From the sequence record NC_019505.1: a DNA stretch of 64,000 nucleotides; one strand, 5' to 3'. How positions within the stretch are numbered: position 1 is the stretch's first letter; every line of letters starts with the position of its first letter. This DNA is from Escherichia phage wV7. The notes below the pieces were generated by a model. That model saw nothing but the letters and a program-made list of their open reading frames with translations. It was not told where the DNA came from and did not search any database. Shown piece after piece: positions 16,718-24,358 of the stretch. Both the position numbers and the translations under genes were made by a program.

Positions 16718-16747
16718 ACTATAACACAACATGAGGGACTTGTAAAC
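16718..16747 (-). promoter_or_regulatory. Early promoter (GTTTACA, 17 nt, TATAGT) inside a leader inverted repeat
   Basis: Minus strand: gTTTACAagtccctcatgttgtgtTATAGTAgtcttactgacataacatgaggaacacaaaATG. Confidence 0.6.
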
Positions 16748-18804
16748 TACATTTTGAACTTTTTAGACATTCCGTTGATGTTAACCAAAGAAGCTAAGAT
16801 TTGAGAAACTTCGTTTTCCTCTTCTTTTGATTCTTCTACAAGGAATTGATTAAATCCAGCCATTGGACGAACTTCACCAGTTTCCATTAGATGGTCGCCA
16901 TCATATACTGATTCTTCTAATTGTTCAGAAGGAGGAACGATTGTACCTTCGATTAGATACTTGTTATAAGCAGTTTCTTTCATAAAGTAAGTACTTACTT
17001 TATTAATCTTCAGTAAAATTCCACGTGGTAGAATAACTTCAGCTTCTGATGGAAATCCTGACAAATGACCTGGAACGATAACTTTAACTCGTTCAGCTCC
17101 TTTAATTACCATACCCACGCTAGTTTCAGCATCTTCATTAGCATATGTAGAATGACTACCCATATGCATCAAATCTTCTGCATCAACGGAACCTTCTCCT
17201 TCACCAGAAAATACTGCTCCGGAATTATCTAAGGCCATATAATTTTTACCATACTCACCAAAGATATTTGGTTTAAGTGATGTCGATACGAAGTTCTTGA
17301 AATAGAACATTTTATTTTCAATGTTATGACGCAAAGTTTTAAAAGTAACTTCTTGTCCACGGTAAAGTGTAGTTCCTGGAGGAAGAACTGAACCTTTAGC
17401 GAATGCAGAATCCAGCGTCTCAATATGTTTAATAGCTCGTTCCATATATTCTTCACGTGTAGAATCAGGTTTACCTAAAAGGAATGAGTTCATTTCAACA
17501 TACGAATCTGCGCAATAATCTTCAATTACATCAGACTCAGCCTGAGTCAATCCTTTTGGAGTTACTTCAGTGCTTGCATATTCATACGCCTGAGCAGCGG
17601 ATTCATCAATTAATTTATAAATGCCATTCATGACAAATTGAATAATAGCTGTCTTTTCATCTGGCGTAGCTTTAGAACCTTTAACTAAATCATTGACAAT
17701 TTTCTTAATAACATCAAAGCTATTAGAAATATTAATGTCAGCAAGATCGCTTAAAATTTTATCAGTTTTATAATCAAAAAATTCTTTATTCTTTAAATAT
17801 TCTTGAGAACTTTGATATGTTATATCGCTCTGCAACTTGATAGATGGATCACGTAAACGTGCATGGGCTAATGCAATATGATTTCGGAAGCTTTCTAGTT
17901 CATAATCGTTAGATTTAAAACGAGAAGCACTTCTCATACCACCGATAGCTCCTTTGCTGAAGTTTGAACCAATCTGAATAACGCCAGAGTTCATTGGTCC
18001 TTCTGCTTTATATACCGGAACTTTAGATTCAAACTCTTGATATTTCTTAGCAGCGAAGCTATCACCCTGAAGTGAAGCATCAACAGTAGAATATTGAGCT
18101 TGTGCTGCTAATCGACGGCTAATTTTAGTTTTCTGAATAACAGCTTGATCCGTACGCTTATCATTTTCTAAAGCAATAGAAGCAGCAACTGCGACAGCTT
18201 TAGGAACAGCATTACCTGTTTTAACGTCTACATAAACATCACCAACCTTTGATTCAACTTTTGTGAATAACTCAGTTGAAATAGGAGGTACACCTGGAAT
18301 GTCTTCTAAATTGGCATTTTTACGGTAAACCATAATATATGCATATTTCTTATCATAGTCCCAGATTTCCTTTAAAAGAACATATCGACCTGCTCCTTTA
18401 GTACGTACTAAACGGTCAGCAATAACTTGCATTTGACGAGCAGCGCCGTTTGTTTTACTTTTTAGTACGCGGAATAGGCATGCATCAATTTTATACTGTT
18501 TCATTGTTTGAAGAGCAGTATCAAAAACCGCATTAATGACGCCAATTGGATTTCCACCCAAGTTTTTAAGCTTAACTAACGATAATTTCTCGTTGACGCC
18601 TATCATTACGATATGCATCATTTTGTCGCCTGGCTTAACGTTTTTATTCGTATCACCGCCAGAGGTGTATGTACAAAATCTAAATCCAGGAAGCACGCTT
18701 TCTTCACCGGCTTGAATAGCAAAAATTTGTGGTATTTTATGCTTAGGATTTAAGTTAACAACCGGCGCCGAAGCGCCGTCAAATAATTCTGTAATAAGTT
18801 CCAT
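16747..18804 (-). CDS. Alt-like mono-ADP-ribosyltransferase, second tandem paralog (685 aa)
   Basis: N-terminus MELITELFD..., CTYTSGGDTN, YVLLKE.WDYDKKYAYI; C-terminal R...STS...EAEVILPRG motif set. Confidence 0.8.
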   Translation of the reverse strand: MELITELFDGASAPVVNLNPKHKIPQIFAIQAGEESVLPGFRFCTYTSGGDTNKNVKPGDKMMHIVMIGVNEKLSLVKLKNLGGNPIGVINAVFDTALQTMKQYKIDACLFRVLKSKTNGAARQMQVIADRLVRTKGAGRYVLLKEIWDYDKKYAYIMVYRKNANLEDIPGVPPISTELFTKVESKVGDVYVDVKTGNAVPKAVAVAASIALENDKRTDQAVIQKTKISRRLAAQAQYSTVDASLQGDSFAAKKYQEFESKVPVYKAEGPMNSGVIQIGSNFSKGAIGGMRSASRFKSNDYELESFRNHIALAHARLRDPSIKLQSDITYQSSQEYLKNKEFFDYKTDKILSDLADINISNSFDVIKKIVNDLVKGSKATPDEKTAIIQFVMNGIYKLIDESAAQAYEYASTEVTPKGLTQAESDVIEDYCADSYVEMNSFLLGKPDSTREEYMERAIKHIETLDSAFAKGSVLPPGTTLYRGQEVTFKTLRHNIENKMFYFKNFVSTSLKPNIFGEYGKNYMALDNSGAVFSGEGEGSVDAEDLMHMGSHSTYANEDAETSVGMVIKGAERVKVIVPGHLSGFPSEAEVILPRGILLKINKVSTYFMKETAYNKYLIEGTIVPPSEQLEESVYDGDHLMETGEVRPMAGFNQFLVEESKEEENEVSQILASLVNINGMSKKFKM

Positions 18805-18807
18805 GAT

Positions 18808-20904
18808 TTATCCTTGAACGAACTTGTAAGGCATGTTTGTAATATCTATGCAAGACGCAATAATTCCAAGAGATGATTCTACTTTCTGTTTAACATTTGA
18901 TGAAACAAATGATGCAAAGTCAACTCTGTCTTCTATTTCAATATCACCTGTCATTGCAACCAATTCACCAGTTTCCATTAAATGGTCTCCGTCATAGATT
19001 ACCGATTCGGTGAGCTCTTCCGTGGTCATAACTTCAGCTTGAATGAGTTTTGTATTATTAGATGTTGTTCCGTCATTATTAGAAGCATCAGTTATTTTAT
19101 TAACTTTGACCATCAATCCACGCGGTAGAATAACTTCAGCTTCTGTTGCTATTCCGAGACTTCCTGGATATACAACATTAACTTTATGAGCTCCATCAAT
19201 TGCCCATCCTATTTGAACTTTAACGTATTCAGGATTTTCTTTATACGCTCTTATTTCGTTTGGATTAATAGTTATTCCTTCTTCATTTTTATCAACTGTT
19301 AATTCATTGCGAGCTTCTGGTTCTAAAAGACCAATACCAGCATGTGTGATTCCAAAACGTCCAAAAATGATAGGAGTTAAAGAAGTAGATACAAAATTTC
19401 TGAAGTAGAACACTTTATTTTTAACTAACGCTTCATATATAGGAGCAGTCATACTTTGAGCACGATAAACTGTGATGCCTTCCGGTATGCGGTCACCATT
19501 TTCAAAAGCTGAATCTAAGTTATTTATAGCAGATTCAATTTCTTTTTCACTCATTACATCATATCGTTCTGGATTGTAACGACCTAAAAGAAGATTATTG
19601 ATGTCAGTATATCCTGAACCGCAATATTCTCTAATGCCACGCTTTTGTGATGGAGTATATTTAGAACCATCGCGGGCAATAGTAATATCAATCATTGGAC
19701 CAGCACCAATTCCAGAAAAACTGTAAATCATTCGTTTGAGGAATTTAGTTTTTGCTGCGTTCCAGGAATTTTTAGTTATTTCTTCCCAGACTTCATCTGG
19801 TTGTCCTTTACGATTTTTATTATGATTAGCAAGCCATTTATCTTTATAATCTTCAAAGAATTGATTTACAGCTGCTGCGTATTTCTCTAAACATTTTATT
19901 GAAGTAGTTGGTTCATTTTTAATTGCATTAAAAATTACTTCTTTAATTTTTTCTGAAACTTCACCGACTTGACTCATTGGAAAGAATTTATAATCATAGT
20001 GAAGTTCATCTGCCGTTCCTTCAGCAATAATTTTTGCTGCCTTTGTTTTAGAAGCTAATGAATTAATTCCAATTTTCATTTCTTCTGCTTCGGGAATTAA
20101 AGGTGCAGTAGCTGGTTTATTAAAATTAGCTGCTGTAGATTCATACTTCTGGAATAATTCACTTTCAAATCTAGAAGATTCCAATGACTGACTTTGTGCA
20201 ATTGCTCTACGGGAAATTTTAACTTTAACGATTACGGCTTGGTCAGAACGTTTATCATTTTCTTGTGCAATAGATGCAGCAATTGCCTCATTTTTGGTTA
20301 CTTGAGCTCCAGTATCTTTATTGATATAAACATCACCGACCTTCGATTCAACTTTAGTAAAGAGCTCGGTGCTAATTTCTGGAACTCCTGGAATGTCTTC
20401 TAGTGATACATTTTTACGATGTATAAGAATATATGCATACTTTTTATCGTAATCCCAGAGTTCCTTAAGAAGGACGTATCTGCCACCTGAACGACTACGG
20501 ATAAGTCTATCAGCAATAACTTGAATTTGTCGAGCTTGGCCAGCAGTTTTAGACTTAAGAATACGAAGCATACAAGCATCAATTTTATATTGACGCATTG
20601 TTTGCATTGCAACAGTAAAAACTGAATTGATATAATTAATTGGGCTTGGACCAAGACCTTTTAATTTAGCAATTGAACCTTTAGCAGTTAATGTAAAAGG
20701 AACAATGTGCATCATTTTGTCGCCCATTTTTAAATCGCGATTAGTATCACCTCCAGATGTATATGTACATAAACGAAAGCCTGGTTGTTCAATTGCATCA
20801 TCAACATGAACTGAAAAAATTTGTGGTATTTTCTTCTTTGGATTTAAGTTTGTAATCGGAAGAGTAGTATCTTCGTCAAATAATTCTGTAATAAGTTCCA
20901 TCAT
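18808..20904 (-). CDS. alt: Alt, packaged ADP-ribosyltransferase (698 aa)
   Basis: Same architecture as the downstream paralog, with YRAQ / FVSTSL / TEAEVILPRG; late promoter immediately upstream. Confidence 0.85.
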   Translation of the reverse strand: MMELITELFDEDTTLPITNLNPKKKIPQIFSVHVDDAIEQPGFRLCTYTSGGDTNRDLKMGDKMMHIVPFTLTAKGSIAKLKGLGPSPINYINSVFTVAMQTMRQYKIDACMLRILKSKTAGQARQIQVIADRLIRSRSGGRYVLLKELWDYDKKYAYILIHRKNVSLEDIPGVPEISTELFTKVESKVGDVYINKDTGAQVTKNEAIAASIAQENDKRSDQAVIVKVKISRRAIAQSQSLESSRFESELFQKYESTAANFNKPATAPLIPEAEEMKIGINSLASKTKAAKIIAEGTADELHYDYKFFPMSQVGEVSEKIKEVIFNAIKNEPTTSIKCLEKYAAAVNQFFEDYKDKWLANHNKNRKGQPDEVWEEITKNSWNAAKTKFLKRMIYSFSGIGAGPMIDITIARDGSKYTPSQKRGIREYCGSGYTDINNLLLGRYNPERYDVMSEKEIESAINNLDSAFENGDRIPEGITVYRAQSMTAPIYEALVKNKVFYFRNFVSTSLTPIIFGRFGITHAGIGLLEPEARNELTVDKNEEGITINPNEIRAYKENPEYVKVQIGWAIDGAHKVNVVYPGSLGIATEAEVILPRGLMVKVNKITDASNNDGTTSNNTKLIQAEVMTTEELTESVIYDGDHLMETGELVAMTGDIEIEDRVDFASFVSSNVKQKVESSLGIIASCIDITNMPYKFVQG

Positions 20905-20953: not shown

Positions 20954-21142
20954 TTAGTAATCTAGTGGTAAGAGAGTACGATATATTTCAAACTTTGGTC
21001 CTTTTTCATAGGCATCAAATGTTTCTGTAAATTTATTGTAAGCATATGCATCTACAAATTCGAGAATGACTTGTGATACAGAAGTAGAAACATCTCCACC
21101 TTCTTTTTGAGCAATGACAATTGTTTCTAAGTAAGCTTTCAT
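20954..21142 (-). CDS. Hypothetical small protein between ligase and alt
   Basis: 62 aa ORF; start overlaps the gene 30 stop. Confidence 0.5.
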   Translation of the reverse strand: MKAYLETIVIAQKEGGDVSTSVSQVILEFVDAYAYNKFTETFDAYEKGPKFEIYRTLLPLDY

Positions 21143-22602
21143 AAACCAGTTACCTCATGAAAATCGCCAAATACATCCTCGAATGTATTAGCTTTAGTTT
21201 TATCTTCACGTAAACGAATCGCAATCGGAAGAAATAATTTAACGTAATCAGTGCGGCCATCAGATTTTAACCAACCGTTGCATTCGCACTCTAGAATTTT
21301 TCCAATATAATAATTTTGGTTTTCCATAATGCGAGTACGGTCAAGTTCATGCGATTTTACACCAGCTTTATCTTTTAAGCCTGAACCAGCATTTACTTTA
21401 ATTTTTCCACACTCTGACTCAAGAATAAATCCACCCGCTTTAGTAGGGTCTTTACGGTGAGGATAAATTCCTACAATTTTTAAATCAACATCAATTACTT
21501 CTTTAAATTTATAAAGATTTTTTGAACGAGCATTTTCCCATAATCCATCGATATTTTTGAGAATAATACCTTCAAGACCTTGGTCAATATACTTTTTATA
21601 AATTACCTTAGCTTCATCTAGGTTATTTACTACCTGGTTTTCAATTAAAATTACTTTATCATAACCTGATGTCATTTGTTCTAGTTTAGAAAAACGTACA
21701 TCATATTTCAAACGAAATGCAGGAAGACCGTATATTTCTACCAACGGGACATAATCCCAGACCTGAAACTTCATGCATTGAGCTTCTTTTTCAGAAATGG
21801 TTCCCTTTAAAGATTTATTAGCGATTCCATTAGAAGTAGTACGTGATTCAGCTACTTCGGCGAATTCTTTAGCTTTACTAATTTCAGGATAAGCATCAAA
21901 AAGAAAATCTAGGCCTTCTGGTTCCTTTTCAACTTGCTCATGGTATACCAATTCGCCATCAATTAACACACCTTCTGGATGAATCTGGCGAGCTTCTGCA
22001 GTCATTTTGATTAACTCTTCCTTGAGAAGATCTAATCCTAGATATTCATTACCAGCTCGTGATAAAAGACGAACATCATCTAATTCATCACCTCTGACTT
22101 CAGCAAAGCACCGAGCTCCATCAGCTTTTAACTGCGCAAAAGCTGGAAACTTGATATTCTTACTAATGCCTTTTTCATCATAAGAACTTGCCAGCATTTG
22201 AGGTTGTTCAGGAATTAAACCTGGCCAAACTTTGTTTGCAATAGATACTGAAGCACCGCATTCAAGGTCTCGCATCATCACCCGACGCAAAACTTCAACA
22301 TCATCTTTTTTACCGTCAGCAATATATCCAGTTAATTCCTCAATTGCCGCATTTCCGGTCAATTTCCGAGTAGCTAACGTGAATTCAATGAAGTCAAGCA
22401 TATCGGTAAGAGTCAACATTCCAAAACTCTGGGTAGCAATACCAGGTTTAGGCCATTTCTTGATATAATACTGTAACCCACGAGAATAAGTCAGACGATA
22501 TACTCGTTTAAGCAATTCATTATCTTTATTCTTTTCAAGAATTGCTTGCTTCTGCTTAGTTGAACCAATAGATGCTATTTCGTTCAGAATTTTAAGAATC
22601 AT
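21139..22602 (-). CDS. 30: ATP-dependent DNA ligase gp30
   Basis: 487 aa, the recalled T4 ligase length; adenylation-site lysine context (AFAQLKADGAR). Confidence 0.92.
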   Translation of the reverse strand: MILKILNEIASIGSTKQKQAILEKNKDNELLKRVYRLTYSRGLQYYIKKWPKPGIATQSFGMLTLTDMLDFIEFTLATRKLTGNAAIEELTGYIADGKKDDVEVLRRVMMRDLECGASVSIANKVWPGLIPEQPQMLASSYDEKGISKNIKFPAFAQLKADGARCFAEVRGDELDDVRLLSRAGNEYLGLDLLKEELIKMTAEARQIHPEGVLIDGELVYHEQVEKEPEGLDFLFDAYPEISKAKEFAEVAESRTTSNGIANKSLKGTISEKEAQCMKFQVWDYVPLVEIYGLPAFRLKYDVRFSKLEQMTSGYDKVILIENQVVNNLDEAKVIYKKYIDQGLEGIILKNIDGLWENARSKNLYKFKEVIDVDLKIVGIYPHRKDPTKAGGFILESECGKIKVNAGSGLKDKAGVKSHELDRTRIMENQNYYIGKILECECNGWLKSDGRTDYVKLFLPIAIRLREDKTKANTFEDVFGDFHEVTGL

Positions 22603-22868
22603 TGTTCATCCTTTAGAGTTTGGTTTACAGCTCTATTATAAATCAATTCATCATTAAGCTCAGTCAAAGACTTGTGGTACGTGGTTCTAACTTTATTTCC
22701 TTGCATCCAGTGCTTGACGTAAATGAAACCTTGCTCTACACATTTTTTAAAAATTCGTTCGTCTTTTTGAGCTCGGAATTCTGGATTGCATCTAAAAAAT
22801 TGATTTACGTGACCGTAATCACGTGTAGTATTACCTTCATTTTCATAAATAGTATGAACAACAAACAT
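22599..22868 (-). CDS. Hypothetical protein (30.1 position)
   Basis: 89 aa ORF. Confidence 0.55.
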   Translation of the reverse strand: MFVVHTIYENEGNTTRDYGHVNQFFRCNPEFRAQKDERIFKKCVEQGFIYVKHWMQGNKVRTTYHKSLTELNDELIYNRAVNQTLKDEQ

Positions 22869-23704
22869 TAGAATGCTCCTTGGAAAATATTATCACCACT
22901 AGTAGGTCTATTATACAAATACTCTATGCCACCGGGTTTAATATAGTTCCATGTCTGAAACGGATGCGTCTGATATGGATGATATAGATTATAAGGATTA
23001 AATCCAGGAGTTCTCCAGGTAGTGTTCCAAGGAAAAGAATCGTTTTTAATCATCTTTTCAATTACATCTTTTATAGCTTTTTCACTATCAAAACTTTCTT
23101 TATTTTCCTTCGATGGAAAAAGCTTATTCTCTACATCATTCCATGTATAAACTCGCTGCGCAGTTTTTGGAATACTGTCACGCTCCCCTCGAGCCATCCA
23201 ATAAACAGGAACATTTAATATTTCACTCGCGTGATCGCAGTGGTGAGCGAGATCGTCAATATAACAAATTACGTTATATTTCTCTTTTGCCTTTTTGAAC
23301 AACTCTTCTTTTGAAGAATCATGACCACACATCAATACTTCTGAGAAGGCACCAGGAAAAAGAGCATTCAAATTAAATTGACGATTTAGCAGAGCGTCAA
23401 TAGAATCACCCAATGCTGTAACAGCTACAAAATTATAATCTTCTTTTAATTTGTTAATTACACACAGGGCATCTTTATACGGAGACAAGTAACGAATAAA
23501 ATCTGAACGATTATACTTTTCGATTAATTTAACACCAAGTTCTTCATCGCAATTAAAGAGCTTACCAGGAGAAATAAATTTTTCGTCCTGAATCATTTTT
23601 AAAATATGTTCCAACGGAAGATTATATTTTTGGGCAAAATAAGGAAGGCCCGATTGCCAGCTTAAACACACCCCGTCAATATCAGTCAAAATAGTAGGCT
23701 TCAT
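22868..23704 (-). CDS. HAD-superfamily hydrolase-like protein (30.2 position)
   Basis: N-terminal DIDGV (HAD motif I, DxDG[TV]); 278 aa. Confidence 0.6.
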   Translation of the reverse strand: MKPTILTDIDGVCLSWQSGLPYFAQKYNLPLEHILKMIQDEKFISPGKLFNCDEELGVKLIEKYNRSDFIRYLSPYKDALCVINKLKEDYNFVAVTALGDSIDALLNRQFNLNALFPGAFSEVLMCGHDSSKEELFKKAKEKYNVICYIDDLAHHCDHASEILNVPVYWMARGERDSIPKTAQRVYTWNDVENKLFPSKENKESFDSEKAIKDVIEKMIKNDSFPWNTTWRTPGFNPYNLYHPYQTHPFQTWNYIKPGGIEYLYNRPTSGDNIFQGAF

Positions 23705-24165
23705 AGAGAGTCTCTTAATAGGTTTAACACATCAATAAATTCAGCTTCGGTTAGTATTGTATCATCTTTTGTTAGACCACTAGCCATGCTATGCTTCAAA
23801 ACTTTTCCTTTCGAGGCTAGTAATGCATCACGAAAGCCCTTGTTTTGAATCGCTGCTTCAAAATATGCATTTGTGTACAACTCTTTCCACGCTGGTGAGT
23901 ATCTTGAAAACGGAACTCCAAGCCAGAAGAGGGTCCCACGGTCCTGAGCTCTTGCATAAGACCTTCCAGCTTGTTGGGCGGCAAGTCCGGATAACCCAAA
24001 TATACGTCTTTGCTGCTCAACATTTTTCACCTTGCACCCTTGGAGAAATCCTTCAAGACCTCCAAATTGGATACCATCCATAACAAAAGGCCATTGAGCG
24101 AAATTACTTAATGCACACGATGGCCATCTAAAATTGCTTCTAATCTCTAACTCAGGCATTTTCAA
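23701..24165 (-). CDS. NADAR/YbiA-family protein (30.3 position)
   Basis: LSNFAQWPF...DG...E.F.Q..K and ...GFRDALLASKGKVLKH resemble the E. coli YbiA/NADAR signature FSNFAAWP...EHYFQAQK. Confidence 0.6.
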   Translation of the reverse strand: MKMPELEIRSNFRWPSCALSNFAQWPFVMDGIQFGGLEGFLQGCKVKNVEQQRRIFGLSGLAAQQAGRSYARAQDRGTLFWLGVPFSRYSPAWKELYTNAYFEAAIQNKGFRDALLASKGKVLKHSMASGLTKDDTILTEAEFIDVLNLLRDSL

Positions 24166-24358
24166 TGCTTATAATTTCAACATCAGCCCAATGACCATAG
24201 CAAGGAAGACGAAATTCAACTGGCCAGTTAGGGTCCTTTTCTAATATAATAGACTTAACTTGTGGTTCTTCATGTTCATCAGTATATGGATTTTTATCTG
24301 TTACTTTATATGTGACCTTAATGTACTGAATTCCAAAAATCTTATTAATTATATTCAT
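24152..24358 (-). CDS. Hypothetical small protein
   Basis: 68 aa ORF in the 30.x cluster. Confidence 0.5.
   Translation of the reverse strand: MNIINKIFGIQYIKVTYKVTDKNPYTDEHEEPQVKSIILEKDPNWPVEFRLPCYGHWADVEIISIENA

Follow-up and report, generated by a model that had tools for sequence, protein, structure and literature searches.

The window analysed here, a stretch of 64,000 nucleotides from Escherichia phage wV7 (sequence record NC_019505.1), contains two adjacent genes, 30.3 (adfN) and 30.2, which encode a NADAR-like and a HAD-like protein. An earlier, sequence-only reading had recognised both as open reading frames (ORFs) and had proposed that they act as a pair in removing ADP-ribose. Both genes are present, on the minus strand:

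23701..24159, minus strand: adfN (gene 30.3), 152-residue NADAR-fold protein, DNA ADP-ribosylglycohydrolase by orthology; stop codon 23701-23703
22868..23704, minus strand: gene 30.2, 278-residue predicted HAD-superfamily phosphatase with a C1 cap, closest to 5'(3')-deoxyribonucleotidases; stop codon 22868-22870

The locus is collinear with that of phage T4 (alt, alt.1, 30 (DNA ligase), 30.1-30.9, rIII, 31 and cd, on the minus strand throughout). A region of 2.1 kb showed 100% identity to Escherichia coli O157 typing phage 7 (Tequatrovirus), and the same region was 95-99% identical in 318 of the 686 matching records of Tequatrovirus and related phages.

The NADAR-fold protein gp30.3

The gp30.3 of the window is 98% identical to T4 AdfN across all 152 residues. 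Three substitutions (S2P, Q114L and I125M) distinguish the proteins, none of them at known catalytic positions. The C-terminal helix is also intact: the last 27 residues (S126-L152) are as in T4, and the model places a helix at 138-151. Previous work showed that this helix is required for AdfN activity and is lost in the inactive allele of phage RB69 (PMC11825919). The ORF recognised earlier, 23701-24165, is a real gene, but its start, a TTG codon at 24165, did not stand. We place the start at the ATG at 24159, which gives 152 residues, because the T4 annotation (a 459-nt gene with an ATG start) and the published numbering of E36 and K43 fit only this position. With that start, the functional codons are as follows:

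24052..24054, minus strand: codon of AdfN Glu36, catalytic; invariant in 37 homologs, and E36A impairs T4 AdfN (PMC11825919)
24031..24033, minus strand: codon of AdfN Lys43, ADP-ribose phosphate contact; kept in at least 90% of homologs, and K43A impairs T4 AdfN (PMC11825919)
23791..23793, minus strand: codon of AdfN His123 in the last strand; invariant in the homolog alignment and a clade signature (PMC11125620, PMC11543638)

K43 has its counterpart in K50 of PnNADAR and K95 of the E. coli C7 NADAR. At the last-strand position of H123, YbiA carries Glu and DarG1-type NADARs carry Asp; His marks the NADARs of the phage gp30.3 type (PMC11125620, PMC11543638).

Searches of gp30.3 in Pfam, NCBIfam and PADLOC against NADAR and DarG models gave PF08010 (Phage_30_3) alone, as a full-length match (E=2.7e-70, 235 bits, cutoff 36). 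PF08719 (NADAR) was not matched in Pfam even at E<=10, and TIGR02464 reached only E=0.17. Direct family models were thus insufficient, and alignments, structure prediction and fold search were used instead for both proteins. Members of the gp30.3 family do reach the NADAR model: 14 of 37 matched PF08719, the best with E=1.5e-7, and when the family profile was searched against PDB sequences, the best match was E. coli YbiA (E=0.0046). In an alignment of the 37 diverse homologs (identity down to 36%), P13, A16-L17-S18-N19-F20, E36-G37-F38, Q40 and H123 were invariant. The NADAR motifs quoted from the sequence, ALSNFAQWPFVMDGIQFGGLEGFLQGCK and GFRDALLASKGKVLKH, occur verbatim in gp30.3.

The AlphaFold2 (AF2) model of gp30.3 had a predicted local distance difference test score (pLDDT) of 94.2 and a predicted template modelling score of 0.89. 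Foldseek comparison with the PDB returned a probability of at least 0.98 for three entries only. The best was 2b3w (YbiA; E 1.8e-5, template modelling score 0.66), followed by 8bau, which is the Phytophthora NADAR (PnNADAR) bound to ADP-ribose, and 8bat, the DarT1-associated NADAR of Geobacter lovleyi. The assignment to the NADAR/YbiA family proposed from the sequence is therefore borne out by an unambiguous fold search, by the retention of E36, K43 and H123 and by the bridge to PF08719 through homologs. The catalytic residues are kept and the protein falls within the NADAR superfamily, although Pfam files it in PF08010 and not in PF08719. By alignment and model, gp30.3 is a predicted NADAR-superfamily protein of the AdfN clade.

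The function of this clade has been studied in T-even phages. The resistance of T2 and T4 to DarTG1 was mapped to gene 30.3, which was renamed adfN (Johannesman et al. 2025, Nat Commun, PMC11825919). Both phages become sensitive to DarTG1 when adfN is deleted, and adfN by itself is enough for complementation. Ectopic adfN also rescues RB69, in which the native allele carries a frameshift and is missing the last helix. The E36A and K43A variants are impaired, and the purified protein strips ADP-ribose from DarT1-modified DNA (all PMC11825919). In vitro, the T4 enzyme cleaves guanosine-ADP-ribose, not thymidine-ADP-ribose (Toxins 2024, PMC11125620). In published work, T4 AdfN is necessary and sufficient against DarTG1. 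When E. coli is not infected, T4 AdfN does not work as an antitoxin. adfN mutants have no phenotype in the absence of DarTG1 (HIDEN-SEQ, 10.1101/2025.11.20.689424). The anti-DarT role suggested earlier for the wV7 protein, removal of ADP-ribose from guanine in DNA, has already been demonstrated for its 98%-identical T4 counterpart (PMC11825919, PMC11125620, HIDEN-SEQ). By orthology to the T4 protein, the gp30.3 of the window is predicted to be AdfN, a guanine-ADP-ribose DNA glycohydrolase and DarTG1 counter-defence.

Natural alleles of the gene vary. Many gp30.3 alleles of E. coli phages are shortened (83-126 residues; among P0107, P0113-P0117, P0121, P0174 and P0206), and other alleles of that set carry extra precomputed Pfam domains beside PF08010 in one ORF (PF06919, PF11097, PF06019, PF26911). 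The sequences of these shortened or fused alleles imply that deletions or frameshifts are common in this gene, and such changes would leave AdfN inactive, as the RB69 allele is. Phage UGJNEcP4 has shortened versions of both 30.3 (91 residues) and 30.2 (212 residues). Within adfN, a 68-residue ORF in another frame (23817-24023, minus strand) matches the position of the T4 annotation 30.3', described in the T4 record as 'internal translation, in a different reading frame, within gene 30.3'.

The HAD-fold protein gp30.2

The second protein, gp30.2 (278 residues, starting MKPTILTDIDGV), is 97% identical to T4 NP_049815. No Pfam HAD or NT5C, NCBIfam HAD or PADLOC model matched it, and PHROGs lists the family as unknown; a literature search found no paper on its function or biochemistry. 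Motif conservation was examined in 33 homologs with identity down to 34%:

23669..23683, minus strand: HAD motif I, D8-I-D10-G-V12 (nucleophile Asp8, general acid/base Asp10); D8, D10 and G11 invariant
23417-23419, minus strand: HAD motif II, T96; at least 90% of homologs
23309-23311, minus strand: HAD motif III, K132; invariant
23252..23257, minus strand: HAD motif IV, D150-D151 (Mg2+ ligands); at least 90% of homologs
22871..23104, minus strand: C-terminal extension, residues 201-278, predicted to be mostly disordered from about residue 225, with a GIEYLxNxPT-like motif

The DIDGV motif noticed in the sequence-only reading is therefore not a chance occurrence. In the AF2 model, the core is confident (pLDDT >90) as far as about residue 200; it shows a Rossmannoid HAD fold and a helical insertion directly after motif I that constitutes a C1 cap. 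Foldseek found 86 PDB matches at E<=1e-3 and, among the matches listed, all were HAD-fold. With the four motifs, the model and these fold matches, the description of ORF 22868-23704 as a HAD-like hydrolase holds, and by fold and motifs gp30.2 is a predicted capped HAD phosphatase.

The tightest superpositions were with 5'(3')-deoxyribonucleotidases, and other HAD subfamilies scored almost as high structurally. The best PDB match of the family profile was the mouse cytosolic 5'(3')-deoxyribonucleotidase (cdN), in which DvDGvlvkWqSgl aligned with NMDGVLADFESGL. W16 of gp30.2 aligned to F18 of cdN, the SGL motif was found in both, and the invariant Y64 lay opposite the Tyr of the cdN VYES motif. 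Among distant relatives, P0356 reached PF06941 (NT5C) with 25.7 bits against a cutoff of 24.8, and P0263 reached PF00702 below the cutoff. Some GenBank records also label gp30.2 homologs 5'(3')-deoxyribonucleotidase. The substrate is most likely a nucleoside monophosphate or similar small phosphoester; we propose this class because a helical C1 cap suits small molecules and because the pocket residues W16, S18 and Y64 align with cdN.

A profile search of 1.84 billion representatives yielded 1,504 relatives of gp30.2, and most of the best 150 are stand-alone proteins of about 200 residues. Domain fusions were sought among 150 distant gp30.2-like HADs, and the long proteins (P0263, P0320, P0216, P0254, P0084) had no recognisable Pfam partner. 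A 302-residue metagenomic ORF on a 1.4-kb contig (P0015) joins the gp30.2 HAD core to the gp30.1 DUF3045 domain; either a true fusion of the genes or an artefact of sequencing or frameshift could account for it. The C-terminal extension of gp30.2 had pLDDT <50 at residues 225-231, 233-235, 239-261 and 269-278. It is missing from many homologs (196-220 residues), and its GIEYLxNxPT-like motif is kept in T4-like phages of several genera; the motif may therefore be a peptide that docks to a partner.

Linkage of 30.3 and 30.2

The two genes belong to a longer chain of minus-strand genes, and two Alt-type genes lie farther along the same strand:

23701..23704, minus strand: ATGA overlap of the 30.3 stop (TGA) with the 30.2 start (ATG), sequence CTCTATGAAGCC
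24152..24358, minus strand: gene 30.4, 68-residue protein, directly upstream of adfN and overlapping its start
22599-22868, minus strand: gene 30.1 (DUF3045), Pfam match; downstream neighbour of 30.2
21139-22602, minus strand: gene 30 (ATP-dependent DNA ligase), Pfam match; conserved downstream neighbour of 30.2
16747-18804 and 18808-20904, minus strand: tandem Alt-type ADP-ribosyltransferase paralogs, full-length, 685 and 698 residues, 41% mutual identity

Stops and starts overlap likewise at 30.4/30.3 (ATGCCTGA), 30.2/30.1 (TAATG) and 30.1/30 (ATGA). Since this overlap is common to the whole chain 30.4-30.3-30.2-30.1-30, the ATGA is not specific to 30.3 and 30.2, and we dropped it as a mark of a dedicated pair. 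Terminator-like hairpins of the minus strand were found at 25753-25732 and 20956-20937, with none between about 25732 and 20956. The strongest sigma-70-like match of the promoter scan (TTGACA-18-TAAAAT, 25345-25316) is located upstream of 30.7; the scan as a whole was at chance level (20 sites, 20.2 expected). With the promoter count at chance, these features are only suggestive of one long transcription unit from 30.7 to alt.1 that would include adfN, 30.2 and ligase.

We then asked how often the genes are neighbors, using 76 viral contig loci anchored on gp30.2 and 80 anchored on gp30.3-type NADARs, each with 8-kb flanks. A gp30.3-type NADAR was present within 8 kb of the gp30.2 HAD in 35 of the 76 loci, including contigs whose match to gp30.2 is only 40-50% identical and phages of Escherichia, Acinetobacter and Aeromonas; in the other 41 no local NADAR was found. 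DNA ligase was detected in the flanks of 71 of the 76, and 30.1 in 24. Conversely, a gp30.2-like HAD occurred within 8 kb in about 18 of the 80 NADAR loci and was not nearby in about 62, many of which are on contigs of about 250-420 kb, well above the size of a T4-type genome. In at least 10 complete T4-like genomes (about 160-175 kb), a NADAR (about 40-44% identical) is located 55-60 kb from the gp30.2-ligase block, and therefore the NADAR moved or was separately acquired while the HAD stayed. The loci with separated genes are L023, L027, L034, L041, L045, L059, L065, L067, L074 and L080 versus L096-L116, L122, L146 and L152; phage-database matches of similar identity came from Klebsiella, Enterobacter and Serratia phages. 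Counted by phage record, the genes occur in 1,438 and 1,509 records, and their host spectra are the same. Genome-level co-occurrence was dropped as evidence of coupling, because both genes are near-universal in Straboviridae.

To assess the requirement for each gene we used the per-gene tables of a published T4 transposon sequencing study with a saturated library and a DarTG1 host (HIDEN-SEQ, 10.1101/2025.11.20.689424). Insertions in 30.3 were lost on DarTG1 (28 sites, mean 261.0 to 0.7, log2 fold change -7.25, adjusted p 0.00000), whereas those in 30.2 were neutral (71 sites, mean 271.5 to 249.8, log2 fold change -0.12, adjusted p 1.0). The sole other significant gene was 30.4 (21 sites, log2 fold change -1.79, adjusted p 0.0141), likely through polarity or translational coupling on adfN, because 30.4 precedes adfN and extends over its start codon; the 68-residue protein may also have a genuine accessory role. 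Gene 30.2 was also non-essential on K-12 (72 of 72 TA sites disrupted) and neutral in M9 (log2 fold change -0.10). Thus, gp30.2 is not required for DarTG1 counter-defence, and a redundant or conditional contribution by it has no support. The proposal that 30.3 and 30.2 form a pair is not supported by these data, by complementation with adfN alone or by the adjacency of a NADAR in only 35 of 76 loci. We had considered gp30.2 as a candidate for the T-even factor that AdfN is reported to need, and these tables led us to reject it as the leading view.

Interpretation and related systems

We consider it probable, at roughly 0.8, that adfN and 30.2 are two independent T4-type accessory genes, for AdfN and a HAD phosphatase, which are adjacent in one long operon, and that gp30.2 is not needed for the anti-DarTG1 function. 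The operon, from about 30.7 to the DNA ligase gene, would hold 30.3 and 30.2 side by side. Host DarT1 would ADP-ribosylate guanines of single-stranded phage DNA and so block replication. AdfN would then, as shown for the T4 protein, cleave the N-glycosidic bond with Glu36, Lys43 and the clade-specific His123, releasing ADP-ribose and restoring replicable DNA. gp30.2 would be a Mg2+-dependent HAD phosphatase that dephosphorylates a nucleoside monophosphate or similar small phosphoester. The adjacency of 30.3 and 30.2 would come from shared ancestry of the ligase-proximal block and not from a two-component machine.

Several observations weigh against this reading. The functions of the window proteins are transferred from T4 orthologs. 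A null result for 30.2 in transposon sequencing would not reveal a redundant partner of AdfN, and the full activity of AdfN is reported to depend on a further T-even factor. In every locus where a NADAR accompanies the gp30.2 HAD, the NADAR gene precedes the HAD gene on the same strand, with gaps of -48 to +1216 nt and often translational coupling. Finally, in L028 (6736-8456, plus strand) a divergent gp30.2-like HAD (190 residues, E=2e-19 to the family profile) is located two small genes upstream of a gp30.3-type NADAR. The order there is reversed relative to T4 and there is no ligase in the 8-kb flanks; judged from the sequence, L028 may be an independent HAD-NADAR association. Given L028 and the constant order of the local genes, the two may have some functional affinity.

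The need for a T-even factor, the constant order and strand, the ATGA coupling in Tequatrovirus, L028 and the presence of both genes in nearly the same 1,450-1,500 or so phage records would also fit a functional pair, in which gp30.2 is the T-even factor that potentiates or localises AdfN, or a downstream phosphatase acting on the ADP-ribose that AdfN sets free or on compounds it breaks down to (ribose-5-phosphate, AMP). Bacterial ADP-ribosylglycohydrolase systems are indeed often coupled to phosphatases, including HAD 5'-nucleotidases (PMC9503650). However, disruption of 30.2 had no effect on the DarTG1 host, where only 30.3 and its upstream neighbor 30.4 were significant, and most HAD loci and most NADAR loci lack the other gene nearby. 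In addition, every junction from 30.4 to 30 has the same overlap style, and co-occurrence is confounded by phylogeny. We regard such a pair as unlikely. We find it slightly harder to credit that gp30.2 is a second counter-defence phosphatase, acting on ADP-ribose-derived phosphoesters released by AdfN or AdfM or on a defence second messenger, or a redundant potentiator that would dock to AdfN via GIEYLxNxPT. If true, such a role would explain why gp30.2 is retained near-universally in T4-like phages despite the absence of a phenotype on K-12, DarTG1 or minimal medium.

The conserved neighborhood of 30.2 and the ligase gene raises another possibility, a role tied to ligation, for example removal of 3'-phosphates at nicks or disposal of AMP or adenylated intermediates that enables ligation. 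However, gp30.2 has a C1 helical cap. Capped HADs are said to act on small molecules, and DNA-end phosphatases such as T4 PNK are reportedly capless, a distinction attributed to Burroughs et al. 2006. Moreover, ligase is essential and 30.2 is fully dispensable (HIDEN-SEQ), and the synteny here is an inherited feature of T4-like phages that may say nothing about function. We would give such a role a poorer chance still. The Alt neighbors were the basis of a further suggestion. The sequence-only reading had placed the genes near ADP-ribosyltransferases, which are indeed there as the two tandem paralogs listed above (the second matches PF03496 with E=9.8e-38), and AdfN, with or without gp30.2, might reverse or tune the ADP-ribosylation of proteins that the phage itself carries out with Alt, ModA or ModB. 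Apart from the closeness of the two paralogs, this idea lacks support. The demonstrated substrate of T4 AdfN is guanine-ADP-ribose in DNA, with thymidine-ADP-ribose left uncleaved (PMC11125620), and activity on protein is unreported in the AdfN and NADAR literature examined. adfN mutants behave normally when DarTG1 is absent, and alt insertions were neutral on DarTG1 (HIDEN-SEQ). Tuning of Alt thus appears highly improbable. In the corresponding space below alt, T4 has three short ORFs only (alt.-1, alt.-2 and alt.-3), and its record notes that two of them resemble an old partial alt duplication.

The central claim, that a T-even orphan NADAR 'antitoxin' erases DarT1 ADP-ribose from phage DNA, is already known and was published in 2024-2025. 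What the analysis adds concerns gp30.2, which it documents as a genuine HAD phosphatase with a wide distribution, in about 1,400 phage genomes and some 1,500 cluster representatives. It is also largely discounted as the missing T-even factor of AdfN, which narrows the search for that factor.

Among known systems, the closest to the wV7 protein is T4 AdfN, which has the same length, the same E36, K43 and H123, the same C-terminal helix and the same place between 30.4 and 30.2. The DarG1-type and other NADARs (8bat, the E. coli C7 NADAR, 8bau and YbiA, 2b3w) resemble AdfN in fold, in the Glu and Lys catalytic positions and in in vitro guanine-ADP-ribose chemistry. However, AdfN has His in the last strand in place of Asp or Glu, lacks the DarG1 N-terminal extension and an accompanying DarT toxin, and belongs to a separate Pfam family, PF08010. 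gp30.2 is similarly set apart from the 5'(3')-deoxyribonucleotidases (NT5C, PF06941; human and mouse cdN and mdN; S. epidermidis 3bwv), since it does not reach the NT5C model and has its own tail of about 78 residues. In strategy, AdfN is matched by T4 AdfM (Tk.4), the anti-DarTG2 macrodomain (10.1101/2025.11.20.689424), which is likewise a stand-alone phage homolog of a DarG hydrolase domain with proposed DNA de-ADP-ribosylation. AdfM differs in its macrodomain fold, in its proposed thymidine target (by the reasoning of the preprint) and in its location at another locus, outside the examined region.

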